From: Gammaproteobacteria bacterium | GTDB lineage: Bacteria > Pseudomonadota > Gammaproteobacteria > Eutrophobiales > Eutrophobiaceae | Length of the DNA stretch: 64,000 nucleotides | Reading direction: 5' to 3' | Assembly (NCBI GenBank): GCA_965221695.1 | Contig: OZ244905.1 | Coordinates: forward strand, 762,355 to 826,354 | Shown here: positions 18,310-41,329 of the stretch, in pieces | How positions within the stretch are numbered: position 1 is the stretch's first letter | Layout: every line of letters starts with the position of its first letter | The notes under the pieces: generated by a model | Told to the model about the DNA's origin: nothing | What the model saw: only the letters and a program-made list of their open reading frames with translations | Database searches by the model: none | Program-made: the position numbers and the translations under genes

Positions 18310-18319
18310 CATGTTAATC

Positions 18320-24174: not shown

Positions 24175-24277
24175 CTGTGCTGCTCCTTACGTCTGCCAAA
24201 GAGGGCACGAATGTCGCAGAGCAATCAAGTCAAACTCTGTGAATTCTGTACCCTCTGTGGCAATAAAATAAGTGATG

Positions 24278-25585
24278 TTACCTGCCGCTCTTGCGCAGGT
24301 TTTGCACCGTGAACATCTGCGGCGGGTTCAACGTGGGATCCAACTGGCCCTTGAACTGGCCGGTGGTGCAGTGTTTTGCCTGCACGTCATACATCATGAA
24401 GCAATTATCGATGGCGACGCCGGAACCCTTGTTACCGGGCAAGTGCCGGTCCGGATAGGCCTGGCAGATGGAAAACGACTTCCACAGGTCGCCCTTGCGG
24501 TCGAACTCGGCCTGGCGCGGAATGGTGTATGTCTGCGCATCGATATACATTACGCGCCGGCTCAACGGGTGATTCGGATCCTTCGGCGTCCCGTGCAGCT
24601 CATAGACCTTGCGCAGTTCCCAGGTGGTCTTAGGATAACAACCATCCACGTCAACGAACTGGTAACCATCGGGTTCGGGCGGCATATCGGTGGCCAGTTC
24701 CAGCTCGTCATGGTTATGGAACGGCAGAAAACCGTTCTTTGTGCCGATATACTCCCAGTTGTAGTCGGATACGCGGTTGTTGTAGCCTTCAAAGTCCTCG
24801 ATCATGATATCCGTGCCCAGGAATGCATCCGTCGTCTGCCCCGTGGCCAGACGCCGTACTCGCCGCTGGAAACCCAGGTACAGCCAGGCGTCATCCCGCT
24901 TCAGGTCGTTCTTGTAACGATGAATGAGAAGCTGGGTATTGGCGATATCAAACGGCTCCAGCGCGCGCACATAAATTGAGCGGAACAATTGCGCGGGATT
25001 GTCTTCAAACTCCGGAACCGGTTCCTGGTTCACCCGATGTTTCCAATTCAGGAAATGGAAGCTCCACTTGATAGTGCGTTCGAGCTTTCCTGATTTGGCG
25101 TTCCTGAACTTCCAGTAGAACGGCGAGATTGCGGCGTTATCGCCCCAGTTATAACCGTACTGGTAATTCCAGGCGACTTTCAGTCCAGCCTGGGGGTCAT
25201 TCACATCCGGTTCAGCAGGAAATGCCCGCCCGGCAACAAAATTATCCACCAGCCCATCCGCATTCAAGGATGGTTGATTGTTGACCGCTTCCATGGTTGC
25301 CTTGATATAGTTCGGGTGTAACTCCAATGATTCCGTTACCTTAGTCTGCAATGCCGTCTCACCGTTTTTGATATGGTCGTACAACGCCGGATCGAGAATC
25401 TCCTTGAACTGCTCCACGTTACCCTGGTCGATGACCATCCCGGGCGTGTATCCTGGAAACTCCGGTGTCCAGTTTTCATAAGGATAAAACGATTTCCTTA
25501 CATCTTCTTCGGTAAAATCGGCTGAGACCGCCAGGCTCAGGGCAACCAGCGGCATAACAGCGAGATACTTGACATACTTGAACAT
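24278..25585 (-). CDS. DUF1329-family secreted protein (paralog 2)
   Basis: 435 aa. Signal peptide MFKYVKYLAVMPLVALSLAVSA. Paralog of 18320-19618. Confidence 0.8.
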   Translation of the reverse strand: MFKYVKYLAVMPLVALSLAVSADFTEEDVRKSFYPYENWTPEFPGYTPGMVIDQGNVEQFKEILDPALYDHIKNGETALQTKVTESLELHPNYIKATMEAVNNQPSLNADGLVDNFVAGRAFPAEPDVNDPQAGLKVAWNYQYGYNWGDNAAISPFYWKFRNAKSGKLERTIKWSFHFLNWKHRVNQEPVPEFEDNPAQLFRSIYVRALEPFDIANTQLLIHRYKNDLKRDDAWLYLGFQRRVRRLATGQTTDAFLGTDIMIEDFEGYNNRVSDYNWEYIGTKNGFLPFHNHDELELATDMPPEPDGYQFVDVDGCYPKTTWELRKVYELHGTPKDPNHPLSRRVMYIDAQTYTIPRQAEFDRKGDLWKSFSICQAYPDRHLPGNKGSGVAIDNCFMMYDVQAKHCTTGQFKGQLDPTLNPPQMFTVQNLRKSGR

Positions 25586-25615
25586 AATAATTAAGCCTCC
25601 TTCCTGAAAATAGTG

Positions 25616-27769
25616 TTAGAAGCGATAGCGAATCAGAACTTGAAACTCGTCCTCGTGCTGCGCCATGCCGATGGGACCGGAACGGAATCGGCCCAGTGGT
25701 TCAAAACCCCTGCGGTCTCCGCAACTGGAACCCACAACATAGGGTTCGGTACAACCGGGGCCATTAGTAAACGGCGGAAATGCATTGGAAGTACGACCGT
25801 CATCCGCGACTCGGGCGCCGGTGCCCAACTTGATATTGGCGCCGAAGATCAAACGCAGGTTATCGTTGATCAGGTAGTCCACACCCGGGGCCACGACGGC
25901 CGCCTTGGCGCGAAAATCATACGCGGTGATAATTCGCGGCAGTACCCGGTCGTTCCTGAAGAAACCCTGGAACAGGAAAGTGCCGATATAACCATTCTTC
26001 CAGTCCTGGAAACCGATCTGCTGCCCGCTGATGGGATGACTGATTGATTTGTGATCAAGCAGGTGCTGGCCGAAAATCTGGGCCGACAGCAGGAAGGTCC
26101 TGTTCGGGTTCAACCAGCGGATATAGGTGGGGCGGTCCCAACCGATGACCCAGCGAATCACGTCTGATTCGGAATTCAGGTCAGATGCCGAGGTATCGGC
26201 AAACTCCTCGCCACTGGTATGGGCCAGTTCCACCCGGAACGCCGACTTCAGTGGATCAATGTAAAAGTCCGCCGAGCCGCCTATCAGGGTAACCCTTGGG
26301 AAGTGGATATCAAATGCCGGCACATATTGCCTGACCCGTTCAAGACCGGGCGTATCGGTAGGATCAAGCGGGCTGAAGCCCAACGGGCATCCGGCAAACG
26401 CCGGGCTCCACAGTCCCGGCGCAGGTGTAGTCGGTGGGCAACCCTGGGGTGGAATCAAGGTTCCCAGGAACGGGTTGACGCCTTCGATCTCGGCGCGTAA
26501 AGCCGGGAGTTGCGAATAAAATGTCATCGCGTTAAGCGAGAAACCCACGCCCCTGAACACACCTTCCAAACGCACCCCGCCCTGGTCGAAGTCCCAGCCG
26601 GGCAAGTGGATATCACGGATACCGATAACATGACGGGGGAAATCCGTTGCCAGGTTCCCATCCGGGGCAAGATGACCGGCAAAGTTATTGACGGTACACC
26701 CATTGTCCCAACAATTCTTCAGCGCCCGGAACAGGTCACCGGCAAGCAGGATATTGTAAGGCTGCCCGCCTTGACCCAGGTTGTTCGGACGGAATTTCTC
26801 GAAGTTCCAGATCACCTGGAAGTTCAGGTCATCAAAGGCGCCTACAGCGCCGGCACGGTACTCCGCAGAAAAGATCCCCAGCGGGATACGGCTGTCCTCG
26901 AACTCCTCGTAAATACTCTGGATAGAAAAATCGATCGGGTTGACCTGGTCCAGTACCCGAAACAGGTCGGTGCGGCCCCAGACCACCTGCTGGCGGCCGA
27001 TGCGGAAGTTGATCTCATCGCCGTTGTTGACCGGCATGGTCGCGTCAACGTAGATCTCCCGCAACCAACCATGGTCATCAGTGAATTCTGGAAAGCGCAG
27101 GTCGTCCAGGGTCGCATCCATATAACCGGGGATACAACCGCGGGGATCGACATCACAGGGCCGGGTCGGGGTAAACAGTTCCAACCCGCCGCCGTACTCA
27201 CCGTTATTGTTGCTGGCTGCAAGTTCGCCACCCACCCTTTTCAGTCCTTCATTGGGATTGACTGTGGTATCGAAACCAAAGCCTCCGCCCCCGGGCAGGG
27301 CCGGCACACCCGCAGAGACCGGTGAGAAGCCCCAGGGCGCATCCACGGTGGGATGATTTGTGAGTTCAGAAACATTGACCATTTGCAACTCGGCATCAGG
27401 ACCGAATCCGACCGGAAGATAGACCCCTGAACCGGAACTGGTGGTCGTGACCGGTCCTCCCGAACGCTTGCCAAAGGTATCGTCGTTCAGGTCGTAGACG
27501 CCATCATAGGTGGCTCGCAGGGTTCCATGAAAGGACAACTCGGAGAACAATCCCGTGGGCTTGAATATTTTCGACCACTCAATCTGACCGCGTATGCGTT
27601 CCTTGGTAATGCCGTAACTGTCACGGTGGTGGTAGGTGTTGTCGACAAAGCCGTGGATTGTCAGGGTGCCGTCACTCGAGTTCCACGCAGATACCGACAG
27701 TGGCGCGATGGCAACAGCGCCTGCGATCGCACTCGATAACAGGGTGAGAGAAAACCTGCGGATATTCAT
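25616..27769 (-). CDS. DUF1302-family outer-membrane beta-barrel protein
   Basis: 717 aa. Signal peptide ...AIAPLSVSA. C-terminal aromatic ...LIRYRF typical of OM barrels. Classical partner of DUF1329. Confidence 0.8.
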   Translation of the reverse strand: MNIRRFSLTLLSSAIAGAVAIAPLSVSAWNSSDGTLTIHGFVDNTYHHRDSYGITKERIRGQIEWSKIFKPTGLFSELSFHGTLRATYDGVYDLNDDTFGKRSGGPVTTTSSGSGVYLPVGFGPDAELQMVNVSELTNHPTVDAPWGFSPVSAGVPALPGGGGFGFDTTVNPNEGLKRVGGELAASNNNGEYGGGLELFTPTRPCDVDPRGCIPGYMDATLDDLRFPEFTDDHGWLREIYVDATMPVNNGDEINFRIGRQQVVWGRTDLFRVLDQVNPIDFSIQSIYEEFEDSRIPLGIFSAEYRAGAVGAFDDLNFQVIWNFEKFRPNNLGQGGQPYNILLAGDLFRALKNCWDNGCTVNNFAGHLAPDGNLATDFPRHVIGIRDIHLPGWDFDQGGVRLEGVFRGVGFSLNAMTFYSQLPALRAEIEGVNPFLGTLIPPQGCPPTTPAPGLWSPAFAGCPLGFSPLDPTDTPGLERVRQYVPAFDIHFPRVTLIGGSADFYIDPLKSAFRVELAHTSGEEFADTSASDLNSESDVIRWVIGWDRPTYIRWLNPNRTFLLSAQIFGQHLLDHKSISHPISGQQIGFQDWKNGYIGTFLFQGFFRNDRVLPRIITAYDFRAKAAVVAPGVDYLINDNLRLIFGANIKLGTGARVADDGRTSNAFPPFTNGPGCTEPYVVGSSCGDRRGFEPLGRFRSGPIGMAQHEDEFQVLIRYRF

Positions 27770-27813
27770 CGTTTATCCCCCTTCGCTAAGTGAACTTGAT
27801 TAGTGTAGTTATG

Positions 27814-27840
27814 AAAATATCGATATTTTTTCATTATAGC
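27814..27840. promoter_or_regulatory. Putative operator/promoter element (site A): AAAATATCGATATTTT perfect palindrome followed by TTTTTTC...TTATAGC, 45-70 bp upstream of the DUF1302 start
   Basis: 16-bp perfect palindrome. The ATATCGATATTTTTTC(N)TTATAGC string is shared with site B (38200-38245). The core is shared with site C (4463-4474). Confidence 0.5.
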
Positions 27841-27933
27841 CTCTTTATTCGCCATTACCATGAATATTTTTTGGGCGGGGACAGGACGTGCCTGTCTCCA
27901 CCTATTGCATAATGATTCCCCAATTCCTCGCTG

Positions 27934-30333
27934 TCAGTCCATGTCAATCTCATCGATCATCGAACCAGTGCCTTTTTCCCAGCGCTCCTCTCCAGCCTTC
28001 ATGATGAATTTCGGCTTGAAAATGTTCACCCAGGCTGGCACCAGGAACATCGCAGACGCCATGTTCATGATCAGCATGATGATAAGCAGGCGGGCCGCGT
28101 CCGCCTGGAAACGCAATTCGGAAATGAACACCCACATGATAATTCCGCCCACCAGGGTCGTAGCAGTCAGCGCAATGGCAACGCCGGTGGTGCTGACCGC
28201 GCGCCGGATCGCGTCCTGCACATTGTCGGCTACATGCATCTCCTCCTTGATGCGGTCCATCATGTAAATCGCGTAATCCACCCCAAGACCGATACCCACG
28301 GCTATCATCGGCACGGTATTGACGTTCAGCCCCATGTTCAGCAATCCCATGCAGGCATAGGTGAGCGTGGTGGCGAAGGTCATGGATACCAGCATCATGA
28401 AGCCGGAGTGGAACGAACCGTAAAACCAGAGAGTAAACGCCAGGATCAGCACCAATACCGCGGGCACGACGATGACATTGGTCTCAAAAGCCTCTTCGTT
28501 GATGGCCGCGGTCACCCCGACCGGGCCGCCTGCCAGGTCGATGTGCAGCCCCTCAATCCGGCTGCCGGTTGTATCTATCCATTCCTTGGCCATGTGGATC
28601 GCGCGCCGTATGGTCTCGCCTGTATGGTCCTTGTAATAGAACACCATGTTGGCCAGCCGGTCATCGGTATCGATATATTCCAGCAATGCGCCCTGGGTCG
28701 GCGCCGACATCATAAACATGAACAGCAGCCCGCCGATATTCTGGTCGATGGACGGGATCACCGCCCAACGCGGGTCATTGTTGCGAGTCATCTGGTTCAC
28801 CTGGGTCAGCAGGTTGTTGACCCCCTTCACACCGCCCAGTTTCGGGTCCAACAGCATGTGGTTCTGGAAATCCGCCAACGCTTTCATGATCTCCGGTTTT
28901 TTCAAACCACCTATTTCATCGGCGCGGGCAATGATGAACAGTTCCTCCGCTCCCGGAAAACGTTCATTGATCGCAGTGGATGAAACATTGAAATCATGGT
29001 CGTGATAGAGCAACGGTGAGCCCGGTTCCGGTTCCCCGATCTGCACCCAGGAACTGAAATACGTCGCGCAAAGAGCAATGATGAGACAGGTAATGAGCAC
29101 CGCTTTCGAACGTCCCCTGGTACCGACAACCTGGGCAAACTTGGGAAAGATCGCCCGCGCCAGGGTATGCTTGACGGCCACATCTTTGGGCCTTGGCAGT
29201 TCCGCCAGCAGCATCGGGATCACGATCAGCACGGTGACCACCATGCAGACCGCCCAGAACGACGCGTAAATGGCCATCTTGTCATTAATCGGCACCGAAC
29301 CCAAGCCGATGAGGTACAGCGCGGAGGCATCCGCAACGATGGCCAGCGCGCCGGGCCTGAACAACGCGTTGAAGGTGTTTCGGGCCGCTGGCACCTTCTC
29401 GCCGGTGCGCGACAACTCAAGGAAATAGCGTTCCATTTTCTGGATGCCGTGGGACATGGCGCGCGCAGAGATCAGAAACGGCACCACCAGCATCAGCGGA
29501 TCCAGGTTATAACCGAACACCCCCATGAAACCCACACCCCAGATACTGGTCAGGATCATGCCCAGCAACGGCAGCAGGATACCGTAAAGCCGGCGCGAGT
29601 AGAAAACCAGGATGCCCAGTACGATCAATATGGTATAGAAGAAGATGAGTAGGATATCGCCACTGTAGGAATCCACCCAACCCACCAGCACCGGGTGGCC
29701 GGTGGCGTGGATTTTCACTCCCGGCGCGGCCTCTTCCGCCCGGATCGCCTGGATTTCCTCAAACACCTTGCCGTAATCGAGCTGGCCTTCATTTAAGGTG
29801 CCCTTGATCAAGGCCGCTTTCATGTCCGGCGAAACCAGCAATCCGTAGACATTGGTACTGGCCAGCACGTCCCGTTGAATCTGCGCCAGTTGTTCTTCCG
29901 TGTATTCTTCGTGGTGCGGGTCGTAATAGTTCTGCGAACGGATGGTGCCATCCGGAGTCAGGAAGATCTTCCTGGTGTTGCGGTGGGTCAGGCTGGTCAC
30001 CAGGTTGTGGTTGATATTGGACACGCTGTCCAGCTTTTGGGTAATGCGGTGAATCCGGTCGAGGGCATCATTCGTGAAGATCGTCCCCTCCTCCACTTCC
30101 ATCGCCATGACGATGATATTGGCCCCGCCGAACGTATCGCGGATACTGTTATGCAGTTGTATGTACGGGTGTTCCTGGGGCAACAGGTCGGCAAAGTCCG
30201 AGAGCATGCGCACGGTGGGAATATTCCAGGCAAACATCGCGGTAATCAGGAATATCAGCGCCAGCACGAATTTCCGGTTGTTGAACAGGAAATTACCGAA
30301 TACCGGAAAAATCTGGCTGGTATCTAGTTTCAT
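27934..30333 (-). CDS. RND-superfamily exporter (MMPL/COG1033-like, two 6-TM bundles)
   Basis: 799 aa. Two hydrophobic multi-TM blocks separated by large soluble loops. Overlaps the upstream Ycf48-like gene by 4 nt. Confidence 0.8.
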   Translation of the reverse strand: MKLDTSQIFPVFGNFLFNNRKFVLALIFLITAMFAWNIPTVRMLSDFADLLPQEHPYIQLHNSIRDTFGGANIIVMAMEVEEGTIFTNDALDRIHRITQKLDSVSNINHNLVTSLTHRNTRKIFLTPDGTIRSQNYYDPHHEEYTEEQLAQIQRDVLASTNVYGLLVSPDMKAALIKGTLNEGQLDYGKVFEEIQAIRAEEAAPGVKIHATGHPVLVGWVDSYSGDILLIFFYTILIVLGILVFYSRRLYGILLPLLGMILTSIWGVGFMGVFGYNLDPLMLVVPFLISARAMSHGIQKMERYFLELSRTGEKVPAARNTFNALFRPGALAIVADASALYLIGLGSVPINDKMAIYASFWAVCMVVTVLIVIPMLLAELPRPKDVAVKHTLARAIFPKFAQVVGTRGRSKAVLITCLIIALCATYFSSWVQIGEPEPGSPLLYHDHDFNVSSTAINERFPGAEELFIIARADEIGGLKKPEIMKALADFQNHMLLDPKLGGVKGVNNLLTQVNQMTRNNDPRWAVIPSIDQNIGGLLFMFMMSAPTQGALLEYIDTDDRLANMVFYYKDHTGETIRRAIHMAKEWIDTTGSRIEGLHIDLAGGPVGVTAAINEEAFETNVIVVPAVLVLILAFTLWFYGSFHSGFMMLVSMTFATTLTYACMGLLNMGLNVNTVPMIAVGIGLGVDYAIYMMDRIKEEMHVADNVQDAIRRAVSTTGVAIALTATTLVGGIIMWVFISELRFQADAARLLIIMLIMNMASAMFLVPAWVNIFKPKFIMKAGEERWEKGTGSMIDEIDMD

Positions 30334-31319
30334 GATTTATCTCCCACCAGTTCCTGAGCTGAAAAAATTTCCAATACGCCTGCGGGTCCGCTCACGATCA
30401 AGCGCTGATCGGGTAACGGCATGATCCCGCGCAGGTACTGGCGGAACGGCCGGCCATGATCGAACGGCAACCACCTGTCTCCATCCAAACGGAAAATGCT
30501 GCCTTCACCACCGGTGACAAACAACTGGCCGTTGGCTTTTGCCAGCGTATACAATGTCACCAGGCTGCCGGTAGCTTGTGTCTCCCAGGTCTCTCCGCCA
30601 TCGTCCGTAGCCAGGACCACGCCGCCCAGGCCGGCGATCCAGCCCCGGTTCGGATCCTCAAAATACATGCTTTGCGGATAAAACTCGTCCGGCATCGGCG
30701 GCATGAATTCCCAGTTGGAGCCGGCATCGGCGGTTTTCAGCAAAGTGCCGAACTCGCCGGCGATATAGATGTTCTGATCATCGAAAAACTGGATGTCCGT
30801 AAAAATAATATCCTCATCCAGGGAGGTTACGTCCCAACTCACGCCGCCATCCCGGCTGACCGAGATGGTGGAAAAGCTGCCTACCACCCACAGGTTGCCG
30901 GCAGGGTCACACTGTATGGCCTGGGGCGCCTCCTCGGTCGCGAGTTGGCTCCTGTTCCAGCTCTCACCCTGGTCGTTCGACAGCCATACTTCACCTTCAA
31001 AGGCCAGCGCGGCAAACAGGCCACCGGCGCAACTGGTAATGTCCAGGAACGCCGGCCAGGAAGGGATTTGATAGCGTTGCCAGCTCGCGCCATCGTCTTG
31101 TGACGACAGGATGACACCACCGGAGCCGACTGCGACGATATTTTGCTGAAATGCACTGACGGCCTGGAAATTGTCGGTCCTGCGAATCGGGTTTTGCAGG
31201 GCTTTCTCGACCTCATCCAGCACCAACGGCGACTCGCAAGCGGATGCCAACACGCAGGCCACAGCCAACAGCCAGCGGCTTGCAAACCGGGCGCTCTCTT
31301 TGATGTAATTATTATTCAT
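30330..31319 (-). CDS. Ycf48-like BNR/Asp-box repeat lipoprotein (photosystem II stability/assembly-factor homolog)
   Basis: 329 aa. Lipobox LASAC. Four SxDxGxSW-type Asp-box repeats (SQDDGASW, SNDQGESW, SRDGGVSW, TDDGGETW, TADAGSNW). Confidence 0.8.
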   Translation of the reverse strand: MNNNYIKESARFASRWLLAVACVLASACESPLVLDEVEKALQNPIRRTDNFQAVSAFQQNIVAVGSGGVILSSQDDGASWQRYQIPSWPAFLDITSCAGGLFAALAFEGEVWLSNDQGESWNRSQLATEEAPQAIQCDPAGNLWVVGSFSTISVSRDGGVSWDVTSLDEDIIFTDIQFFDDQNIYIAGEFGTLLKTADAGSNWEFMPPMPDEFYPQSMYFEDPNRGWIAGLGGVVLATDDGGETWETQATGSLVTLYTLAKANGQLFVTGGEGSIFRLDGDRWLPFDHGRPFRQYLRGIMPLPDQRLIVSGPAGVLEIFSAQELVGDKS

Positions 31320-31401
31320 GTTTCCCCTAAATTAACCCTCATAAACAGCGCGCTGCGCATCCTGGCCGCATGTAATTGTTGACATAATCCAAATCACGCC
31401 C

Positions 31402-31510
31402 CCGTACCACTCGTGCGAAACACCACCTTACCACTCCCGCAAAACACCAACTTACCACTCCCGCGAAAGCGGGAGTCCAGTCAATTACTGTGTCGCCCGC
31501 AGGGCGACCC
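31402..31510. repeat. REP-like compound hairpin repeat, copy 3
   Basis: CCACTCGTGCGAAACACC, CCACTCCCGCAAAACACC, CCACTCCCGCGAAAGCGGGAGTCCAGTCAATTACTGTGTCGCCCGCAGGGCGACC. The ~50-nt core is nearly identical to 8041-8095. Confidence 0.8.
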
Positions 31511-31523
31511 GTTATTATAGTTT

Positions 31524-32312
31524 TCAAACCATCCGAAAACTGACCTTCCCCAAGTCCTGGAAGCGCACATTGATCGTATCGCCTTTGTCCAGAGCAACCG
31601 CCGCCGTGATTCCCCCGGTCATTATGAACGTCCCTGCGGGTATGGTCTCACCGCGCGCAGCCAGCATGTTCGCCAGCATCGCCACGCTCAGGGCAGGATG
31701 CCCCAACACTGCGGCGCCGGCGCCGGTCTCAACCACTTCTCCGTTTTTCTCCATCACCACCCCAAGGGCCGGCAAGTCCAGGGAGTCCGCGCCACGCAAG
31801 ACACTGCCGACGACAAAGCCTGCGGCGGAAGTATTATCGGCAATGACGCTCTTCAGGTCAAAACGAAAATTTTCATAGCGGGAATCGATGATCTCCAACG
31901 CCGCCGTAACAAAATCAACGGCTTGCAATACCTGGCCGATATGGCATCCGGGACCGGCCAGTTCCGCTTTTGTCACGACAGCCACCTCCGCTTCCACGCG
32001 CGGGTGGATAAACGCTGAGCAGTCAATCTCAGCGCCATCGGCGTAACCGCCGGTAGCAGGCAGGAAACCGTATACCGGATCGGACACCCCCATCTGCCGC
32101 ATCTTGGCCTGGGAGGTCAGGCCCATTTTCAGGCCGGCGATGCGGATGCCGCGTTCTTCTTTGCGCCGGCGGATCTCGTACTGGATGGCGTAGGCGTCCT
32201 CCCAGTCCAGTTCCGGGTAGTCATCGGTAATCTTCGTTACCGCTTGCCGGTTGAGTTCGGCATTCTCCAGCCGCTCGGCCAGTTGCCTGATGGTTTTTTG
32301 ATCCAGCGTCAT
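31524..32312 (-). CDS. 4-oxalocrotonate decarboxylase (XylI/DmpH-like)
   Basis: 262 aa. Collinear high similarity to XylI ([10 protein letters not shown]...GLKMGLTS...[21 protein letters not shown]...[27 protein letters not shown]). Position at the end of the meta operon. Confidence 0.85.
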
Positions 32313-33349
32313 TGCACTGCCTTTATTTCACGCCGCGCCCGCGCCATGTTCAGCGCAACGTCTTCGATCATGTCTTCCTGGCCGCCGATGGTCTTCATCT
32401 TCCCCAGCTCGACCAGGATGTCGCCCGAAGGCAGCTTGTATTTTTCACCGACGCGCTTCGCGTGCAGCAGGAACGAAGAGTAGACACCGGCATAACCCAT
32501 GATCAACGAGTCACGGTCGACCCGGATCAACTGGTCCATTATCGGCACCACCACATCTTCCGCAACGTTCATCAATTTGAATACATCCACGCCGGTTTTG
32601 ACGCCCATGCGGTCCAGCACCGCGTTGAACACCTCAAGCGGCGTGTTGCCGGCGCCGGCGCCCAGCCCCGCGGCGGAACCGTCAATCCGGTCGGCGCCCG
32701 CTTCGACTGCGGCCAGTGAATTGGCAATGCCCATTGCCAGGTTATGGTGCCCGTGAAAGCCAATCTCGGTATCGGCTTGCAGGCCGGCGCGCAATGCCCC
32801 GATGCGGGCCGTGACATCATCCGGCAGCATATAGCCGGCAGAATCGGTGCAGTAAATGCAGTTGGCGCCATAGGATTCCATCAATTTGCCCTGTTCAAGC
32901 AACTGTTCCGGTTCCACCATATGCGCCATCATCAGGAAACCGACGGTATCCAGGCCCAGTTTTCGAGCTGAACTGATATGTTGTTCCGAGACATCCGCCT
33001 CGGTGCAATGGGTCGCGACGCGGATGGTATGGACTCCACAATCCCGCGCCATGTTCAAATGATCCACGGTGCCGATACCCGGCAACAGCAAGGCCGACAC
33101 ATTTGCCTGCTTCATACGCGGCGTGACCGCTTGCAGGTACTCTTCATCGGAGCTGGCAGGAAAGCCGTAATTGATGGAGGCGCCACCCAGGCCATCGCCA
33201 TGGGTCACTTCGATAAGGTGGACGCCTGCGTCATCCAGCGCGGAAGCGACATCGATCATCTGCTCAGTCGTGATCTGGTGGCGCTTGGCATGCATCCCGT
33301 CGCGCAGGCACATATCATGCAGTTTTACTGTTTTTCCGTTTAGATTCAT
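32309..33349 (-). CDS. 4-hydroxy-2-oxovalerate aldolase (DmpG/MhpE/BphI-like)
   Basis: 346 aa. DRE-TIM N-terminus [13 protein letters not shown]...[13 protein letters not shown]. 4-nt overlap with the decarboxylase gene. Confidence 0.9.
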
Positions 33350-33392
33350 GGTGTTGTTGTATCAGTTTCGACTTGATCGCTGTTTTGTGGGG

Positions 33393-34301
33393 CTAAGCGT
33401 TGGCCGCATCCAGGCGCAATGCGCCGTTGATGATTTCTTCCGCGAACATCTCACCGGTTCGCAGCGCCGCGGCGGTCATGATGTCCAGGTTGCCCGCGTA
33501 ATCCGGCAGGTAATCTCCCAGACCCTTCACCTCCATGAAGATGGAGACGCGCCGGCCGTCGAATACCGGGCCGTTTTTCAATTGGTAGCCGGGCACGTAC
33601 TTCTGCACTTCCCGGATCATGTCGTGGACGGATTTGCGGATAGCATCCTGGTCGGGATCGTCCTGCGTCAGGCAATGGATGGTGTCGCGCATGATCAGCG
33701 GGGGTTCAGCAGGGTTGAGGATGATGATGGCCTTGCCGCGTCCGGCGCCGCCTACCCGTTCCAGCCCGTTGGCCGTGGTGCGGGTGAACTCATCGATATT
33801 CTTGCGGGTGCCCGGGCCGGCGGATTTCGACGCGACAGTCGCCACGATCTCTGCGTATTCCACCGGTTGTACCCTGCTTACCGCGGCTACCATCGGGATT
33901 GTCGCCTGGCCACCGCAACTGACCATGTTCACGTTGGTCTCCTGTTTGCCGACATGTTCCTGCAGGTTTACGGGCGGCACACAATACGGGCCGATGGCAG
34001 CCGGCGTCAGGTCGATGACCAGCACACCCCGTTGTTCCAGCTTCCGGGAGTTCTCCGGGTGGACCGAGGCAGAGGTCGCATCGAAGGCGATCCTGATACC
34101 GTCTTTTTCAATATGTTCGAGCAACGCATCCACGCCTTCGTGGGTGGTCTTCAGGCCGCTCGCGCCGGCCTTTGCCAGGCCGTCCGAGTTCGGGTCGATT
34201 CCCACCATCCACACCGGGTTGATGCGATCACTGCGCAGCGCCTTTATCATCAGGTCCGTGCCGATATTGCCGGAACCGACCAAAGCAGCATTAACTTTCA
34301 T
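33393..34301 (-). CDS. Acetaldehyde dehydrogenase (acetylating) (DmpF/MhpF/BphJ-like)
   Basis: 302 aa. [27 protein letters not shown]-binding start. Catalytic Cys region [12 protein letters not shown]. Confidence 0.9.
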
Positions 34302-34327
34302 ATTCAGTTTACCCCTGTCCTCTATCC

Positions 34328-35119
34328 TCAGTTGAACCGCACCGATGCGTTGCCGATTCCGCCGACAGCCAGGGTCATTACATCTCCGGGCACGACGGGG
34401 TGCAGCGGCACCAGGGAACCGGACAGGATCACTTCACCCGCTTCCAGCTTGATACCGAACTCGCCCAGGGTGTTCGCCAACCAGGCCACACAGTTTACTG
34501 GTGAACCCAGCGCCGCGGCGCCGGCGCCGGTGGCGATAACTTCACCATTTTTGGTATGTACCATGCCGCAGGTCACCAGGTCCACGGCGCGCGGGCTCAC
34601 GGCCCGATCTCCGAGCAGGAACGCCCCGCAGGACGCGTTATCGGCAATGGTGTCTTGTATCTTTATCTTCCAATCCTGAATACGGGAATCCACGATTTCA
34701 AAACAGGGCATCACACATTCCGTGGCGCGCAGCACCTCGGCATTGGTGATACCCGGACCATCCAGGTCGTGTTTCAGGATGAACGCGATCTCACCCTCTG
34801 CCCTGGGCTGGATCATTTCCGCGCTGATGGGTACTTCGTCGCCGTCGTTGTAGACCATGCGGTCGGTCAGGTAACCGAAGTCCGGCTGGTTGACCTGCAG
34901 CATATTCATAACCGCCTTGCTAGTAACACCAATCTTCTTGCCGATGATTTTCTCGCCGTCATCCAGGCGCCGTTGCAGTAATTGCAGCGAAATGCGGTAG
35001 GAGTCCTCAATGGTGATATCCGGTTCCTGGTCTGTCAGTGGCTCGATGGTCTTGCGCGCGCGCAGGCAATCGTACAAGGTATTGCCATAAGACAGTATTT
35101 TTTCTTCAGTCAGGCTCAT
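34328..35119 (-). CDS. 2-oxopent-4-enoate hydratase (XylJ/DmpE/MhpD-like)
   Basis: About 263 aa from the ATG at 35119. Close similarity to XylJ ([28 protein letters not shown]...[47 protein letters not shown]). Confidence 0.85.
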
Positions 35120-35148
35120 TATTTCTGTCACAGTGTCGGATTGAATTC

Positions 35149-36639
35149 CTACAGTTTCACACACACGTTGCGCATCTCGGTGTAGAACTCAAGTGAGTGT
35201 ACACCACCTTCGCGGCCTATGCCCGATTGTTTGGAGCCGCCGAACGGAGTCCTGAGATCGCGCAGGAACCAGCAGTTGACCCAGGTGATGCCGACATCAA
35301 TGGCGGCGGCGACCCGGTGCGCGCGGGATGCATTCCCGGTCCAGATCGCCGTTGCCAGGCCGTAGCGCGTGTCATTGGCCATCGCAATCACTTCGGCCTC
35401 ATCGTCAAAAGGCTGTACATGGCAGCAAGGACCAAAGATCTCCTCCCGGATGACCGGCGATGATTCAGGCAGGCCCGTCCAGATGGTCGGTTCCACCCAG
35501 AAGCCGCCGGCCAGATCGTCGTGCACTTGCGGAATACCGCCGCCGGTTACGACCTGCGCGCCCTCTTCCCTGGCCTTTTCATAGTAGGACAGCACTTTTT
35601 CCCGCTGCTGCCGGCTAATCATCGGCCCCAGAGTGGTGGTTGCCAGTTCCGGCTTGCCGGTTGCCAGGTTTTCGGCGCCCAGTCTGAGCCGGTCCACGAA
35701 TTCATCGAATACCGGGCGCTCCACGTAAACCCGTTCCGTTCCCAGGCAGACCTGGCCGCAGTTGGCGAATACCGAACGCATGGCCCCTTCCAGGGCCTTG
35801 TCCATATCGCAGTCGGCAAACACCACGCCCGCGTTTTTGCCGCCCATTTCAAAGGAGACATCGCGCAGCCCTACGGCTGCGGCTTTCATGATTTGCGAAC
35901 CGGTGGTTGTCTCACCGGTAAACGTGATCGCGTCCACGCCCTGGTGCGTGGTCAGGTACTCGCCGGCAGATTCCGGCCCGAAACCATGCACGACATTGTA
36001 TACGCCAGCGGGAATACCCACCGCATTCATCACCTCACCCAACAGGGTCGCGGTCGCCGGAGTCTCTTCGGACGGCTTGACCACGACCGCATTACCACAG
36101 GCCAGCGCCGGACCGACCTTCCAGGTCATCAGTAACAGCGGCAGGTTCCAGGGACAGATCACGCCGATGACCCCCTTGGGCACGCGCAGCGCATAATTCA
36201 ATGCGCCGGCGCCGTCCGGCGTGTCCATCATGAAGGATTCCGCCGGCACATTCTTGATCACATCGGCAAATATCTTGAAATTGGCCGCGCCCCGGGGTAT
36301 ATCCACATGCCGCGCGAGCGACCAGGGCTTGCCGGTATCAAGACACTCCGCTTCGACAAAATCATCGAACCTGGCGTTGATGCCATCGGCCAGCTCATAC
36401 AGTAAAGCCACGCGTTGCTCTACGGTCAGTGAACCCCAAGGGCCTTCGAGAGCGGCCCGCGCCGCTTCGACTGCCGCATCGACTTCATCACGACCCGCTT
36501 CATGGACCTGCGCATAGGCCTCCCCCGTCACCGGGTTCAGCGTGTCAAACATTCTGCCGCCGGCAGATCCGACAAACTCGCCGCCGATAAAATGGCAGAA
36601 CGGCGACCCGGATACAACCTGTTTTACTTGAGCATGCAT
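35149..36639 (-). CDS. 2-hydroxymuconic semialdehyde dehydrogenase (XylG/DmpC-like NAD+ aldehyde dehydrogenase)
   Basis: About 496 aa from the ATG at 36639 (GGAG RBS). ALDH motifs and XylG-like segments PDGAGALNYA, VICPWNLPLLLMTWKVGPALACGN, FGGSKQSGIGREGG, C-terminal ...EFYTEMRNVCVKL. The track ORF is over-extended to 36666. Confidence 0.88.
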   Translation of the reverse strand: MHAQVKQVVSGSPFCHFIGGEFVGSAGGRMFDTLNPVTGEAYAQVHEAGRDEVDAAVEAARAALEGPWGSLTVEQRVALLYELADGINARFDDFVEAECLDTGKPWSLARHVDIPRGAANFKIFADVIKNVPAESFMMDTPDGAGALNYALRVPKGVIGVICPWNLPLLLMTWKVGPALACGNAVVVKPSEETPATATLLGEVMNAVGIPAGVYNVVHGFGPESAGEYLTTHQGVDAITFTGETTTGSQIMKAAAVGLRDVSFEMGGKNAGVVFADCDMDKALEGAMRSVFANCGQVCLGTERVYVERPVFDEFVDRLRLGAENLATGKPELATTTLGPMISRQQREKVLSYYEKAREEGAQVVTGGGIPQVHDDLAGGFWVEPTIWTGLPESSPVIREEIFGPCCHVQPFDDEAEVIAMANDTRYGLATAIWTGNASRAHRVAAAIDVGITWVNCWFLRDLRTPFGGSKQSGIGREGGVHSLEFYTEMRNVCVKL

Positions 36640-36669
36640 TTTTTTCTGACTCCTATTACACCCCAATAT

Positions 36670-36838
36670 TATTCCCGCTTAAGCGGAAAGCCAGCTAACA
36701 AAGTATCGCCTGTCAGGCGATACGCTATCATACTGGACTCCCGCTTACGTGGGAGTAGTACGAGCATCGCTCCTACTCCAGTACCATTCCCGCGAAAGCG
36801 GGAATCCAGTGAAACAAACCGTCGCTTCAGCGACACTA
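36670..36838. repeat. REP-like compound hairpin repeat cluster, copy 4 (fills the HMSD-GlcG intergenic region)
   Basis: TTCCCGCTTAAGCGGGAAAG, GTATCGCCTGTCAGGCGATAC, CTCCCGCTTACGTGGGAG, TTCCCGCGAAAGCGGGAATCCAGTGAAAC, CGTCGCTTCAGCGACACTAT. Confidence 0.8.
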
Positions 36839-36840
36839 TA

Positions 36841-37269
36841 TTATTCCGGGGCCAAATACCCCAGCGCATATTCGGCTATTTCCCCATCCTGTTGTTCCGA
36901 AGCGCCGGAAACGCCTATCGCGCCGATACGGCGCCCGCCAATCTCAATCGGCGCCCCACCACCACAAACCATCAACCGGTCAGCATTGGGGAGACCGATT
37001 CTGCACGCCGGCGACAGGGAATCCAATACTTCTCCCCATTTCGATGTCGGCATGCCGAAACTCATAGCCGTGTAAGCCTTGTTGATCGCCAGGTCAACGG
37101 AATGAAACGCCGAACCCGGCATGCGCAAAAACGCGGCAAGATGCCCGCCGCTGTCCACTACTGCGACATTGACTTTCACGCCTAACTCCTCCGCCCGCGT
37201 TACCGCAGCCTGAACCAGTGCGTGAGCCGCTTCCCAGTGGATGCTGCCCTGATCTACCACCACTTTCAT
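36841..37269 (-). CDS. GlcG/HbpS-family (DUF336) haem-binding-like protein
   Basis: 142 aa. Family-typical length and the pattern ...AVVDSGGHL.AF.RMDGA...A..KA.TA... 4-nt overlap with the upstream GST gene. Confidence 0.65.
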   Translation of the reverse strand: MKVVVDQGSIHWEAAHALVQAAVTRAEELGVKVNVAVVDSGGHLAAFLRMPGSAFHSVDLAINKAYTAMSFGMPTSKWGEVLDSLSPACRIGLPNADRLMVCGGGAPIEIGGRRIGAIGVSGASEQQDGEIAEYALGYLAPE

Positions 37270-38054
37270 CTGTTCAGATGCGCTTGTATCTTGCGCCAGG
37301 GGGCCTGCCCCTTGTGCTTGAGTTCAGCCATTTTTTCCGCAGAAAAATCAGCCGCGACCCCAACCTGGTAAGACGGCCGGTCAACGCAACGCGCATACCA
37401 GTCAGCGACCCGTTTGCGCGACTGGTACCAGTCTGCCCAGCCGAATTGGAACAGGGTTTGAAAATACGGGGACATGGCCGCGTCCGCCAGCGAGAACCGA
37501 TCGCCCGCAAGCCAATCCTGGGTTTCCAGCGTGCGTTCCATGTCGGCAATGGTCTTCTCGTAGGTCGCCACTGCGTCGACGATATCGGGCGCATCATAGC
37601 CCATCTTCAGCAGCCGCCTCTGCCGCTCTCGCCGGGGTTTCTCGACAACCCGGTCAATGACAGCATTCATCTCCGCTTCTGAAAGCATTTTGAGCTTGTC
37701 CGCCATAACCAGCGGCCATTGCAACGCGCCGCAACTCGGGTGCACCTTGATGTCAATGTGTTTCATCCACAGACGCATCTGCGCGCTATGGTAGGGATTG
37801 TCCGGACGCATATCCGGTTCAGGAAACTTGTCCTGCAGGTACTCGCAGATGATGGAGGATTCGATTACCGACCTGCCATCGTCGACCAGGGTCGGCACCA
37901 CGCCCAACGGGTTCAGCTTGAGATAGTCCGGCGCAAGATTTTCCTTCTCCGCCAGTTCCACGTGACGCTTTTCCCAATCCAGGTCTTTTTCTGCCAGTAC
38001 GATGCGCACCTTCTGCGAACAGGGCGACATGGGATGAGTGTATAATTCAAGCAT
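37266..38054 (-). CDS. Glutathione S-transferase-family protein (Cys-containing N-terminal thioredoxin-like domain)
   Basis: 262 aa. N-terminus LELYTHPMSPCSQKVRIVLAEKDL (GST_N with an active-site-region Cys). C-terminal alpha-helical GST_C-like domain. Confidence 0.75.
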   Translation of the reverse strand: MLELYTHPMSPCSQKVRIVLAEKDLDWEKRHVELAEKENLAPDYLKLNPLGVVPTLVDDGRSVIESSIICEYLQDKFPEPDMRPDNPYHSAQMRLWMKHIDIKVHPSCGALQWPLVMADKLKMLSEAEMNAVIDRVVEKPRRERQRRLLKMGYDAPDIVDAVATYEKTIADMERTLETQDWLAGDRFSLADAAMSPYFQTLFQFGWADWYQSRKRVADWYARCVDRPSYQVGVAADFSAEKMAELKHKGQAPWRKIQAHLNR

Positions 38055-38333: not shown

Positions 38334-39014
38334 TTGACGATGCGCGCCAAAACGCTGGTTGAAGCGTCTTATGACCGGATCCGTTCCGATATTATCGCGG
38401 GGAAACTGGCGCCGGGTTCCAAGCTGCGCATTGAGGAGTTGCGGGAAGACTATAACATCGGCGCAAGCCCGTTACGCGAGGCCCTGAACCGGCTGGCCGG
38501 CGAAGGCTTTGTCACCGCGGAAAGGCAGCGAGGGTTCAAGGTTGCGCCGGTTTCTACAGAGGACCTGAAAGACCTGAGTCGCATGCGGGTGATGCTGGAA
38601 TGCCAGGCGTTGCGCGACAGTATCAGGAACGGCGATGATGAATGGGAGGTAAACCTGGTCGCATCCCACCACCGCCTGCAAAAGGCGGAACAGCATTACG
38701 GTAAGAACCTGGCGGAATGGGAACAACGCAACGATGAATTCCACGAAGCCCTGGTGGCGGCCTGCGGCTCAACATGGTTACTGCGCTTGCGCCACCTGCT
38801 CTACGAACAGCATAAGCGCTACCGTTTCATCGCGATACTGTCCCAACAGGAAGGGCGGGATGTTCACCAGGAACATCGCGAGATACTGGAAGCGACTCTG
38901 GCGCGTGACATCAACGCGGCCTGCAAAGCCACGCAACAACATATACAGCAGACGTTGGACACCAGCATCCGGGTATTCACTGAGCTGGAAAAAAACAGCC
39001 CCCTCTCCGTATAA
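38334..39014 (+). CDS. GntR-family transcriptional regulator (FadR/FCD subfamily)
   Basis: 226 aa. N-terminal wHTH (AKTLVEASYDRIRSDIIAGKLAPGSKLRIEELREDYNIGASPLREAL), then a helical FCD-like effector domain. Divergent from the catabolic operon. The start may be the ATG ~6 nt downstream of the track TTG. Confidence 0.85.
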   Translation: MTMRAKTLVEASYDRIRSDIIAGKLAPGSKLRIEELREDYNIGASPLREALNRLAGEGFVTAERQRGFKVAPVSTEDLKDLSRMRVMLECQALRDSIRNGDDEWEVNLVASHHRLQKAEQHYGKNLAEWEQRNDEFHEALVAACGSTWLLRLRHLLYEQHKRYRFIAILSQQEGRDVHQEHREILEATLARDINAACKATQQHIQQTLDTSIRVFTELEKNSPLSV

Positions 39015-39034: not shown

Positions 39035-41329
39035 TTGAACAATACGTTTCTCCGTTCAATCCCGGCGGCCATCATAGCTGTGTTGACAACATTTGCCGGC
39101 CTGGCCCAGGAAACTGCGCCATTGCTGGAAGAGATCATCGTGACCGCCGAAAAACGCGCCGAAAGCCTGCAGGACTTGTCCCAGGCCGTGACCGCGCTGT
39201 CGGGCGAGGCACTGGACAACCGCAATATCACCAGCTTTGTGGACCTCAGCGGCATAGCCCCGGGCGTTACCGTCGCCAAGAACGAAGGGGTAAGAACCGT
39301 CATCTCCATACGCGGCGTGGGCAACGAGGCCAACCAGAACTCGATAGCCAACCCTTCCGTGTCCTACCACCTGGACGGAATCTACGTGGCATCGCCGTTT
39401 GCCCTGCGCACCGACTTCCTGGACCTGGAACGTATTGAAGTGTTGCGCGGCCCCCAGGGCACCCTGTTCGGCCAGAACTCCACGGGCGGTGCGATCAATG
39501 TGATTACGCAGGCGCCGGATACAGGGGAATTCTTCGGCAAGGCCGATATCACAGTGGGGAACTACAGCCTGACGCGGGTGCGCGGTTCGGTCAACATCCC
39601 CATCAGCGATACCACGGCCTTGCGCGCCTCGGTCGCTACCCACAACCATGACGGCTTCAGCAAGAACATCTTGCTGGACCAGGAACTGGATCAGGCCGAC
39701 AACTTTTCCGGCCGCACCCGCCTGCTCTGGGCGCCGGCTGAAAACCTGCGCTTCAACTTCACTGCGCAGTATTTTGACGAAAACACCAACGGCGCGGCAC
39801 AGAAAGGTATTTTCGACTCCACCCCGAACCCGCGCCGTCTGACCCAGGACCGGCACAGCAGTTACCAACTGGAGAGCCAGCTCTACAGTCTGGTCGCTGA
39901 ATGGGAACTGCCCGCGTTCACGGTCAAGTCGCTGACCAGCTACCAGGACGATGAGGTCTCCGCGTCACGGGACAACGACCGTCATGATTTTTCCACGCTG
40001 ATTAACCGCGGGACCTTCCTGTTGCCAGCCAGCGTTGATCCGGAGGCTGTCGGCCAGAAGACCATCACACAGGAGCTCAACCTTATCTCCTACGAACCGC
40101 TGTTCGGCCGACTCGATTGGGTGGTCGGGATGTTCTACCTGGATACCGATGTGGACATCCTGTTTCGAGAATATATCGACTTTAATACCGACGGCGTTTA
40201 TGGTCCCGACAAGGTCAGTGTGGAGGAGGTGCTGAACTTCGGGGGAGAAGTCGGCTTCATCTCTGATTCAAATCCGCAGCGGGAATCGATCTCCGTCTAT
40301 GGCCAGGGCGCGTACAATCTTACCGACAGTCTGCGCCTGGTCGCCGGGCTGCGTTATACGGAAGATCAGGTTAACTCCAAGGTCACCAATTTCTTCGGCC
40401 GCGCCGGCACCGCTGTTCTTGAAACCCGGAGCGAGAAGCTTACCGGCCGCGGCGTGGTGGAAATCGATCTCAACATTAACGCGATGGCATATGCGTCATA
40501 CACCCGCGGTTTCAAACCGGGCGGCAGCAACCTGACCTACGGCCGGGAGGATGTGGTGGCTCCCATCCTGGTGCTGCCCACCTACAAGGATGAGACGGTA
40601 CAGGCCTGGGAAGTCGGCCTCAAGACCGACTTTGCCGGCAACCGGGTGCGGGTCAACGCCGCGGCGTTCTACTACGACTACGAAAACCTGCAATTCCAGG
40701 CGACCGACCCCGAAGTGTTCGAGGGTGGGGTCGGCAACCTGCCGGGATCGGAAATCTACGGCGCCGAGATGGAACTGCTGGCGTTCGTCACAGACAGCCT
40801 GACCCTGGATGCGCGCCTGTCCTGGCTGGAAACGAAGATCTCCGAATCACACCTGGCGCTGGACAACGTGCGCTCCGATGACGCCACCAACGCGCTCTTG
40901 CCCCAGTGCCAGTTCAACCTGTTCTGCGACGACATCCAGCGCGCCCGCGCCGCGGCGGTGACGGACGTAAAAGGCAACCAACTCGCCAAGACGCCCAATT
41001 TCACCGCGGACGTGATGCTGCGCTACCTGACTCGCCTGGGCAATTGGAGCGATTTCGAGACCAGCGTGCAATACCTCTACCGGGGCGGCTTCCAGCACCG
41101 CATCTTCAACAACCCGAAAACCGATGATGTGCCCAGCTACCATATCGTCAACCTGGTATTGACGATTGCGCCGGACGCGTACCCCTGGCACATCGACCTG
41201 ATGGGAATGAACCTGACTGACGAAGATGGTATTAACGCCCGCTTCACCGATGTCTTCGGCGTCGGCTCCACCAGCGACGAACTGATCCCACCCCGGCAAT
41301 ACATGGTACGCTTCGGCATGGAGTTCTGA
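39035..41329 (+). CDS. TonB-dependent outer-membrane receptor
   Basis: 764 aa. Signal peptide. TonB box/plug EEIIVTAEKRAE. C-terminal ...MVRFGMEF with terminal Phe. Confidence 0.9.
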   Translation: MNNTFLRSIPAAIIAVLTTFAGLAQETAPLLEEIIVTAEKRAESLQDLSQAVTALSGEALDNRNITSFVDLSGIAPGVTVAKNEGVRTVISIRGVGNEANQNSIANPSVSYHLDGIYVASPFALRTDFLDLERIEVLRGPQGTLFGQNSTGGAINVITQAPDTGEFFGKADITVGNYSLTRVRGSVNIPISDTTALRASVATHNHDGFSKNILLDQELDQADNFSGRTRLLWAPAENLRFNFTAQYFDENTNGAAQKGIFDSTPNPRRLTQDRHSSYQLESQLYSLVAEWELPAFTVKSLTSYQDDEVSASRDNDRHDFSTLINRGTFLLPASVDPEAVGQKTITQELNLISYEPLFGRLDWVVGMFYLDTDVDILFREYIDFNTDGVYGPDKVSVEEVLNFGGEVGFISDSNPQRESISVYGQGAYNLTDSLRLVAGLRYTEDQVNSKVTNFFGRAGTAVLETRSEKLTGRGVVEIDLNINAMAYASYTRGFKPGGSNLTYGREDVVAPILVLPTYKDETVQAWEVGLKTDFAGNRVRVNAAAFYYDYENLQFQATDPEVFEGGVGNLPGSEIYGAEMELLAFVTDSLTLDARLSWLETKISESHLALDNVRSDDATNALLPQCQFNLFCDDIQRARAAAVTDVKGNQLAKTPNFTADVMLRYLTRLGNWSDFETSVQYLYRGGFQHRIFNNPKTDDVPSYHIVNLVLTIAPDAYPWHIDLMGMNLTDEDGINARFTDVFGVGSTSDELIPPRQYMVRFGMEF

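Follow-up and report, generated by a model that had tools for sequence, protein, structure and literature searches.

A lower meta-cleavage gene module of an uncultured gammaproteobacterium is probably one half of a split phenol degradation operon

The 64-kb stretch of contig OZ244905.1 analysed here (64,000 nucleotides, hereafter the window) holds five genes of the lower part of the catechol meta-cleavage pathway, at positions 31524-36639, without a ring-cleavage gene of the matching type. What, then, feeds this module? The source organism is uncultured and known from metagenome assemblies alone; identical or near-identical proteins occur on ENA metagenome contigs and in the NCBI metagenome-assembled genome (MAG) CBDCSC01. 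The reading that we favour, with a probability of roughly 0.7, is that of a split operon, the lower half of which is found here and receives 2-hydroxymuconic semialdehyde (HMS) from an unlinked catechol 2,3-dioxygenase (C23O). A lower meta pathway that lacks its local partners would then reflect the splitting of an operon in one clade, and not new chemistry.

The identity of the five genes was established by a profile scan of the open reading frames (ORFs) of the window. Each protein scored above the curated NCBIfam equivalog cut-off (Table 1), in agreement with a preliminary description of this DNA that had placed them in the canonical order xylGJQKI / dmpCEFGH. All five lie on the minus strand, and the slots of the hydrolase and of the tautomerase are empty. 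The Pfam scan concurred, including the communication domain of the DmpG-type aldolase and the dimerisation domain of the DmpF-type dehydrogenase. The hydratase and the decarboxylase are a paralogous pair with the FAH fold, and each obtained its top score with its own model. Furthermore, motifs that we take, from general family knowledge, to be catalytic were found in every protein: the glutamate (FEMGGK) and the cysteine (CGQVCLG) of aldehyde dehydrogenases in the 2-hydroxymuconic semialdehyde dehydrogenase (HMSD), the metal-site motifs ExE and EIVDSR in the hydratase, the catalytic cysteine motif SCGGQA in the acylating acetaldehyde dehydrogenase, LRDGMH and HGHHN in the aldolase, and ExE and EIIDSR in the 4-oxalocrotonate decarboxylase. 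The start of HMSD was set at the ATG at 36639, which fits the family model and agrees with the end coordinate of the preliminary description, and not at the TTG at 36666 that opens a longer ORF; the protein starting at this ATG has an identical copy on ENA contigs of the same species. Judged from sequence, the five genes make up the lower half of a phenol/catechol meta-cleavage operon of the dmp type and are predicted to be functional. The module can thus be classified as one more lower meta pathway of the dmp/xyl/nah type, in a split arrangement.

The window was then searched for the missing partners. Pfam and/or NCBIfam scans of essentially all its large ORFs found no Glyoxalase/VOC, LigB or cupin-type dioxygenase and no alpha/beta-hydrolase. 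Profile hidden Markov models for C23O, the ferredoxin XylT, the 4-oxalocrotonate tautomerase (4-OT) and the HMS hydrolase DmpD, each built from 11-30 length-filtered orthologues of related loci, gave nothing below E = 0.2 in the six frames of the window, with the exception of a plant-type [2Fe-2S] ferredoxin ORF at 3306-3590 on the minus strand (E = 2e-10 with the XylT profile). This ORF lies 28 kb off the module, near a VanA-like Rieske oxygenase, which is not the context of a XylT gene. No match was obtained when the dmpK-P, ferredoxin, C23O and DmpD proteins of a relative were compared with the window by tblastn; the unannotated intergenic gaps hold small HicA/HicB-like ORFs only, and Rfam and tRNA scans of the window returned nothing. 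The earlier statement that C23O, HMS hydrolase, 4-OT and XylT are missing from the window was therefore upheld by these searches, for XylT in the sense of an operon-linked gene. A 328-aa ORF at 10485-11471 was rejected as a XylE candidate: its tblastn E value of 2.4 is at chance level, the C23O profile is silent on it, and it has no relative in Pfam, NCBIfam or the PDB.

Comparison with related loci suggests how this arrangement arose. The clade of the window comprises 18 genome loci (L005-L022, from 17 genomes) with decarboxylases that are 80-99% identical. These 18 closest loci all come from uncultured MAGs named "Gammaproteobacteria bacterium"; the names of the isolates point to sponges and corals as hosts, and an association with sponges is independently backed by a related locus, L095, from a metagenome of Aplysina aerophoba. 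Wherever the contig reaches, the architecture is the same: the genes of a GntR regulator and a TonB-dependent receptor point away from a row that reads glutathione S-transferase (GST), NahX-like protein, HMSD, hydratase, acetaldehyde dehydrogenase, aldolase, decarboxylase, BNR, RND, DUF1302, DUF1329, DsbA and reductive dehalogenase (RdhA). A profile search within 10 kb on either side of the module detected C23O, XylT, DmpD or 4-OT in none of the 18 loci. In the sister lineages (65-74% identity), the upper half is found directly upstream. In five of them (L069, L073, L078, L027, L072) dmpM/N-O-P, ferredoxin and C23O are followed directly by GST and/or NahX and then by HMSD through to the decarboxylase. 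Three others (L023, L074, L077) also carry dmp-ferredoxin-C23O upstream, with the GntR gene alone between C23O and GST; by synteny, the TonB-dependent receptor of the window occupies the slot of dmpP-XylT-C23O in L023. These arrangements indicate that the ancestral dmp-type operon was contiguous, with dmpKLMNOP, a XylT-like ferredoxin, C23O, GST, (NahX), HMSD, hydratase, acetaldehyde dehydrogenase, aldolase and decarboxylase in this order, and they place the break point in the window's clade between C23O and GntR/GST.

The upper half appears to persist elsewhere in the chromosome. With the C23O of L023 as a query, proteins of 79-80% identity were found on megabase ENA contigs. There they form the end of an island that was observed at nine loci and consists of a gene for a DmpD-type HMS hydrolase in opposite orientation, a second hydrolase, DUF6616, dmpKLMNOP, a XylT-like ferredoxin and C23O, sometimes with toluene-monooxygenase-like (tmo) genes on its 5′ side. 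The DmpD-type hydrolase matches its profile with E ~1e-138 and is found in L085, L087, L088 and L180. The genes of the island and those of the linked operons are orthologous (80% identity for dmpP and 80% for C23O between L085 and L023). Three clade chromosomes contain both halves, at distances of 0.86-3.1 Mb: ERZ25069191:ctg587131 (4,955,547 bp), with the module at 397-418 kb (L092) and the island, including tmo genes, at 3.51-3.53 Mb (L091); the circular chromosome OZ242265.1 (4,527,523 bp), with L017 (module) at 1.75-1.77 Mb and L178 (island) at 0.875-0.897 Mb; and OZ220696.1 (4,341,124 bp), with L015 (module) at 1.47-1.49 Mb and L179 (island) at 0.586-0.608 Mb. The preliminary description had called the feed of the module unlinked or non-canonical; these three chromosomes support the first term, while the second has gained no positive support. 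It had also proposed to look for a C23O gene just beyond the window edges as the refuting observation, a test that does not apply because the island of the relatives lies about 1 Mb away or more. The island adjoins a conserved methyltransferase cluster (MTTB, B12-binding, MTHFR, pterin-binding and RACo proteins) in L085, L087-L091, L093, L178 and L179, and the junction of the two is a hotspot for insertions of toxin-antitoxin, restriction-modification and transposase genes.

Further islands were found in other samples, none of them from the window's species. A tree built on the concatenated proteins of the module places this species between L017, on the one hand, and L015 and L092, on the other; all three are lineages with a proven island. 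Since the species is bracketed by island-bearing lineages, the split predates it; the same phylogenetic bracketing makes it rather likely that its own genome carries an unlinked island. Several observations weigh against the split-operon reading. No C23O was found on the 3,512,735-bp or the 906,042-bp contig of the species among the matches listed; however, the same list missed the C23Os of L178 and L179, and it is thus not evidence of absence. The nearest complete genome checked, that of L016 (4,918,764 bp), has no island in the 10 kb beyond the RACo anchor, where toxin-antitoxin and transposase genes are found instead. Since comparable insertions separate the island from RACo in L179, where the distance is 6.5 kb, absence from the L016 genome is not established. 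Loss of the island in the sub-lineage of the window is nevertheless possible. In addition, 4-OT was not found in the window, in the clade loci, in the islands L085-L091 or in the C23O-linked sister operons, which leaves the ketonisation step of the pathway without an assigned enzyme, and the measure of selection on the module, given below, is affected by saturation.

The absence of 4-OT appears to be an older trait of the lineage, separate from the C23O split, because 4-OT is missing even from sister operons in which C23O is linked. The earlier view that the missing tautomerase belongs to the same anomaly has therefore to be abandoned. A 4-OT profile made from 25 orthologues found no match better than E = 0.39 in the six frames of the window, and the gap that occupies the 4-OT slot contains a GC-rich hairpin without a T-tract (31492-31508) and, at 31405-31468, a tandem repeat with a 24-bp unit (2.7 copies, 87% matches). 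In more distant operons of the same order (L028, L037, L059, L060, L064), 4-OT follows the decarboxylase. Either a tautomerase is encoded elsewhere, or 2-hydroxymuconate is ketonised without one; its slow spontaneous ketonisation is established chemistry. A marine group with the order HMSD-hydratase-acetaldehyde dehydrogenase-aldolase-decarboxylase and no recognisable 4-OT keeps HMSD and the decarboxylase under purifying selection. The existence of a group of meta operons without 4-OT raises the small question of how ketonisation proceeds in them.

In the pathway that we propose, catechol would be formed by the multicomponent phenol hydroxylase of the island and/or by the HpaB-type enzyme encoded near the module, and the unlinked C23O would cleave it to HMS. 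HMSD, judged from its family, would convert HMS to 2-hydroxymuconate, which would give 2-oxo-3-hexenedioate either spontaneously or through an unlinked enzyme. The decarboxylase would then produce 2-oxopent-4-enoate, the hydratase 4-hydroxy-2-oxovalerate, and the aldolase pyruvate and acetaldehyde, the latter being converted to acetyl-CoA by the acylating dehydrogenase. The module would thus cover the dehydrogenative 4-oxalocrotonate branch and the common hydratase-aldolase-dehydrogenase trunk. The HMS hydrolase of the island would offer an alternative entry, with 2-oxopent-4-enoate taken up at the hydratase step.

Other explanations of a module without local partners were weighed against this one. 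The loss of the ring-cleavage and tautomerase genes from the locus could mean that the module is a remnant in decay. However, in L092 and in each of the 16 clade loci that cover the module, the five genes are full length and stop-free. Their catalytic motifs show no damage, and the pairwise dN/dS (nonsynonymous to synonymous substitution rate) relative to the window is 0.03-0.13 for all five genes in all species-level comparisons; these values are qualitative only, as dS has probably come close to saturation between genomes so far apart. Full-length, stop-free genes with such ratios in effect rule out decay, to which we attach a negligible probability, and indicate that the module is intact and under purifying selection across the clade. 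Selection was found in every clade genome regardless of its island status, and this would also suit a species that has lost the island and keeps an orphan module for intermediates of the HMS or 2-oxopentenoate type, which would be made by a different extradiol dioxygenase encoded elsewhere (of the LigB type, the cupin type or another VOC subfamily) or taken up from neighbours in the sponge holobiont. The failure to trace a C23O to the species' contigs among the matches listed and the lack of an island in the 10 kb next to the synteny anchor of the L016 genome point the same way, as do the TonB-dependent receptor and the RND/DUF1302/DUF1329 transport genes that flank the module. We nevertheless regard an orphan module as doubtful: the C23O list contained proven false negatives, the module tree shows island-bearing lineages on either side of the species, and we know of no precedent for the uptake of reactive ring-fission products.

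It is also conceivable that the feed comes from within the gene array that surrounds the module, and that no C23O is needed. The HpaB-type hydroxylase and the intradiol dioxygenase of the array could convert pyrogallol to 2-hydroxymuconate, a reaction performed by catechol 1,2-dioxygenase, or carry out an atypical cleavage of the extradiol type. Ketonisation aside, the array encodes every step from a halophenol to central metabolism save the extradiol dioxygenase, in place of which it has an intradiol-family enzyme; likewise, the cluster that follows RdhA ends in XylT-C23O in other marine contigs and in the intradiol gene here. The nearest relatives of this enzyme are, however, hydroxyquinol 1,2-dioxygenases, and their product, maleylacetate, offers no aldehyde to HMSD and is not the type of substrate used by HMSD or the decarboxylase. 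The pyrogallol route would bypass HMSD, which is yet strongly conserved. Clade genomes with the same array still hold C23O islands, and an intradiol orthologue (64% identity) lies beside a complete C23O-containing operon in L069, which argues that the intradiol enzyme accompanies C23O and does not replace it. We consider a feed of this kind very improbable, and hold the same opinion of its fuller form, a self-contained bromophenol array in a species without the island, in which RdhA and the HpaB-type enzyme would yield a polyhydroxybenzene and the intradiol enzyme a 2-hydroxymuconate-type product for the lower meta pathway. If the intradiol enzyme did feed the module, the locus would combine ortho-type cleavage with a meta-type lower pathway in a natural hybrid. 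Finally, the module could belong to the catabolism of 2-aminophenol or 3-hydroxyanthranilate, as the lower part of a 2-aminomuconate pathway. Pathways of this kind are naturally devoid of C23O, HMS hydrolase and 4-OT, the amn and nba clusters share with the window the lack of a hydrolase and a tautomerase, and dehydrogenases of the TIGR03216 type also oxidise 2-aminomuconic semialdehyde. Against this stand the window ORFs, among which there is no AmnBA/LigB-type enzyme, 3-HAO cupin, ACMSD (Amidohydro_2), or RidA-type or amidase-type 2-aminomuconate deaminase, and the sister lineages, in which orthologues are physically linked to genes for phenol hydroxylase and C23O; an aminophenol pathway is accordingly most improbable.

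The module does not stand alone but lies near the head of a conserved array of 16 same-strand genes (38054..17364, 20.7 kb) with gaps of at most 204 bp and an even GC content, which runs from GST to the intradiol dioxygenase in the order of Table 1. The preliminary description had put the module downstream of the intradiol gene; the reverse is true, as the latter (18233..17364) ends the array 13.3 kb from the decarboxylase gene and the module is transcriptionally upstream.

Table 1. Genes and other features of the array and of its divergent flank, in the order of the array
Feature	Coordinates	Strand	Evidence
TonB-dependent receptor	39035..41329	+	Pfam Plug, TonB_dep_Rec
GntR/FCD-family regulator, divergent	38334..39014	+	Pfam GntR, FCD
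Glutathione S-transferase (GST), 262 aa, first array gene	37266..38054	-	Pfam GST_N, GST_C
NahX-like DUF336/HbpS-like protein, 142 aa	36841..37269	-	PF03928, 135 bits; NahX 9jth, E = 9e-31
2-Hydroxymuconic semialdehyde dehydrogenase (HMSD, XylG/DmpC type), 496 aa	35149..36639	-	TIGR03216, 862 bits (cut-off 693)
2-Oxopent-4-enoate hydratase (XylJ/DmpE type), 263 aa	34328..35119	-	TIGR03220, 429 bits (cut-off 409)
Acylating acetaldehyde dehydrogenase (XylQ/DmpF type), 302 aa	33393..34301	-	TIGR03215, 468 bits (cut-off 282); AcetDehyd-dimer PF09290
4-Hydroxy-2-oxovalerate (HOA) aldolase (XylK/DmpG type), 346 aa	32309..33349	-	TIGR03217, 551 bits (cut-off 286); HMGL-like and DmpG_comm PF07836
4-Oxalocrotonate (2-oxo-3-hexenedioate) decarboxylase (XylI/DmpH type), 262 aa	31524..32312	-	TIGR03218, 420 bits (cut-off 351)
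Gap in the 4-OT slot, 204 bp	31320..31523		Hairpin and tandem repeat, no tautomerase ORF
BNR/Ycf48-like protein	31319..30330	-	
RND/MMPL transporter	30333..27934	-	
DUF1302 protein	27769..25616	-	
DUF1329 protein	25585..24278	-	
DsbA-like / 2-hydroxychromene-2-carboxylate (HCCA)-isomerase-like protein, kappa-GST fold, 197 aa	23581..24174	-	PF01323; HCCA isomerase 2imd, E = 1.5e-16
NpRdhA-type (putatively catabolic) reductive dehalogenase (RdhA), 748 aa	21276..23522	-	TIGR02486, 209 bits (cut-off 160)
HpaB-type two-component flavin-dependent phenol ortho-hydroxylase, oxygenase component, 516 aa	19689..21239	-	Pfam HpaB_N, HpaB
Second DUF1329 lipoprotein-like protein	18320..19618	-	PF07044
Intradiol dioxygenase, hydroxyquinol 1,2-dioxygenase type (predicted), 289 aa, last array gene	17364..18233	-	Pfam Dioxygenase_N, Dioxygenase_C

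At the head of the array, a promoter-like site is predicted from sequence at 38225-38197 on the minus strand, 5′ of the GST gene. The divergent GntR/FCD protein, encoded at the same position in every clade locus as well as in L023, L074 and L076, is probably the regulator of the array. The GST has LigF as its top match among solved structures (88 bits, with 55 bits for BphK), and orthologues of 68-73% identity lie between C23O and HMSD in the sister operons L033, L069, L073 and L078; the slot of the NahX-like gene between GST and HMSD is likewise conserved across loci. The set BNR-RND-DUF1302-DUF1329, which may be an envelope system for the import or export of hydrophobic aromatics, stands 3′ of the meta operon in the clade loci and in L023, L037, L073, L074 and L076-L078; in L062 it is located 5′ of the module. 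The DsbA-like gene is kept in the clade and in L023 and L033.

The last genes of the array encode the enzymes that relate it to halogenated phenols. RdhA scores 590 bits against the NpRdhA structures 4ras and 6zxu. The HpaB-type protein reaches 671 bits with TIGR02310, below the cut-off of 885, and its alignments score 629 bits with 4oo2 and 590 bits with HpaB of E. coli; no HpaC reductase linked to its gene was found in the window. The intradiol enzyme falls below the NCBIfam cut-offs for catechol and chlorocatechol 1,2-dioxygenases. Its top structures are PnpC 3n9t (288 bits), the 6-chlorohydroxyquinol dioxygenase 8r2x and the hydroxyquinol dioxygenase 1tmx (239 bits), and it reaches about 150 bits with catechol 1,2-dioxygenases. 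It is assigned to the hydroxyquinol 1,2-dioxygenase type, its specificity being predicted, and probably serves a side branch; a maleylacetate reductase, which would act downstream of it, was not found in the window. Unlinked partner genes are evidently normal for this genome.

The segment RdhA-HpaB-DUF1329-intradiol has a counterpart of 87-90% identity in the sponge locus L095 (metagenome MKWU01). RdhA homologues of 61-69% identity adjoin dmpKLMNOP-XylT-C23O in other marine contigs (L100, L107, L122), and homologues also stand within meta clusters (L105-L109). This recurrent proximity supports a link between dehalogenation and meta cleavage. Compared with NpRdhA of Nitratireductor pacificus, to which the 748-aa protein of the window is similar, the difference lies in the setting: the gene is part of a phenol/catechol catabolic array in a sponge-associated lineage, and its meta linkage recurs in marine contigs. 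The array probably carries out uptake, debromination and hydroxylation of halogenated phenolics, with the catechol products passing to meta cleavage, and the NpRdhA-type neighbour suggests that the natural substrates include ortho-brominated phenolics. By analogy with BphK, the GST and the kappa-GST-like DsbA protein might, speculatively, act on halogenated ring-fission products. Such an array would join a putatively catabolic reductive dehalogenase of the cobalamin type to the aerobic hydroxylation of phenols and to ring cleavage. Should it work in this way, the mineralisation of bromophenolics from the host would not be confined to the anaerobic Desulfoluna but would extend to aerobic symbionts of sponges. 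None of the papers searched describes such a dehalogenase-containing array or an RdhA-meta linkage, and we regard this array of sponge symbionts as a more interesting lead than the module itself.

The arrangement was further compared with known systems. The gene order of the dmp operon of Pseudomonas sp. CF600 is dmpKLMNOPQBCDEFGHI, and that of the xyl meta operon of pWW0 is xylXYZLTEGFJQKIH. The description of a phe operon agrees with these orders (PMC5336314). The window has the same five families in the same relative order as dmp and xyl, and its sister lineages carry the full series from dmpKLMNOP, ferredoxin and C23O to the decarboxylase. Unlike dmp and xyl, the window locus is devoid of the Q/T ferredoxin, the B/E dioxygenase, the D/F hydrolase and the I/H tautomerase; GST and the NahX-like gene stand ahead of HMSD; the divergent regulator belongs to the GntR/FCD type and not to the sigma-54 (DmpR/XylR) or LysR type; and the upper half forms, in the window's relatives, the separate and distant island described above. 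NahX is a member of the nah/sal meta operons with unknown function (PMC5336314). The window shares NahX (DUF336) and the same meta-pathway enzymes with the nah/sal lower operon (NAH7 and P. stutzeri AN10; nahGTHINLOMKJ and nahX), in which, however, nahX stands at the 3′ end after nahJ (4-OT), whereas the NahX-like gene of the window lies between GST and HMSD, without a 4-OT. Genes for GSTs are known from meta clusters, namely bphK in the bph locus of Burkholderia xenovorans LB400 and the cbzTEXGS cluster of Pseudomonas putida GJ31. In the cbz cluster, the genes for ferredoxin, C23O, X, HMSD and GST follow one another, an order similar to XylT-C23O-GST-NahX-HMSD in the sister lineages. In bph and cbz, as in the window, GST adjoins dehydrogenase or hydratase genes of the meta pathway, although the GST of the window is distant from BphK and closer to LigF-like GSTs.

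Several other gene groups of the window were recorded. Between the VanA-like Rieske oxygenase (4603-5727, plus strand) and the ferredoxin mentioned above lies a HicA/HicB-like pair (3606-4140, minus strand); oxygenase and ferredoxin may form an O-demethylase-type system without a linked reductase. At 10012-11471 (minus strand), the 328-aa protein is paired with a DUF6152 protein, and an MFS transporter and a 571-aa Amidohydro_3 protein adjoin. Next to the TonB-dependent receptor, the segment 41344-45130 (minus strand) holds a conserved operon for an ECF sigma factor, a VIT-VWA protein of 768 aa and two small proteins of 131 and 153 aa that belong to no known family; this operon is present in all loci of the same species. 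The region 45286-57525, with a low GC content of 0.39-0.47 at 46-50 kb, contains a 749-aa ORF without a known family, flanked by HicA/HicB genes. It continues with a type I restriction-modification system (hsdM at 49563-51164, hsdS, and hsdR at 54208-57525) into which a pair of Peptidase_M78/IrrE-like and DUF4411 genes is inserted between hsdS and hsdR, and probably represents a mobile defence island.

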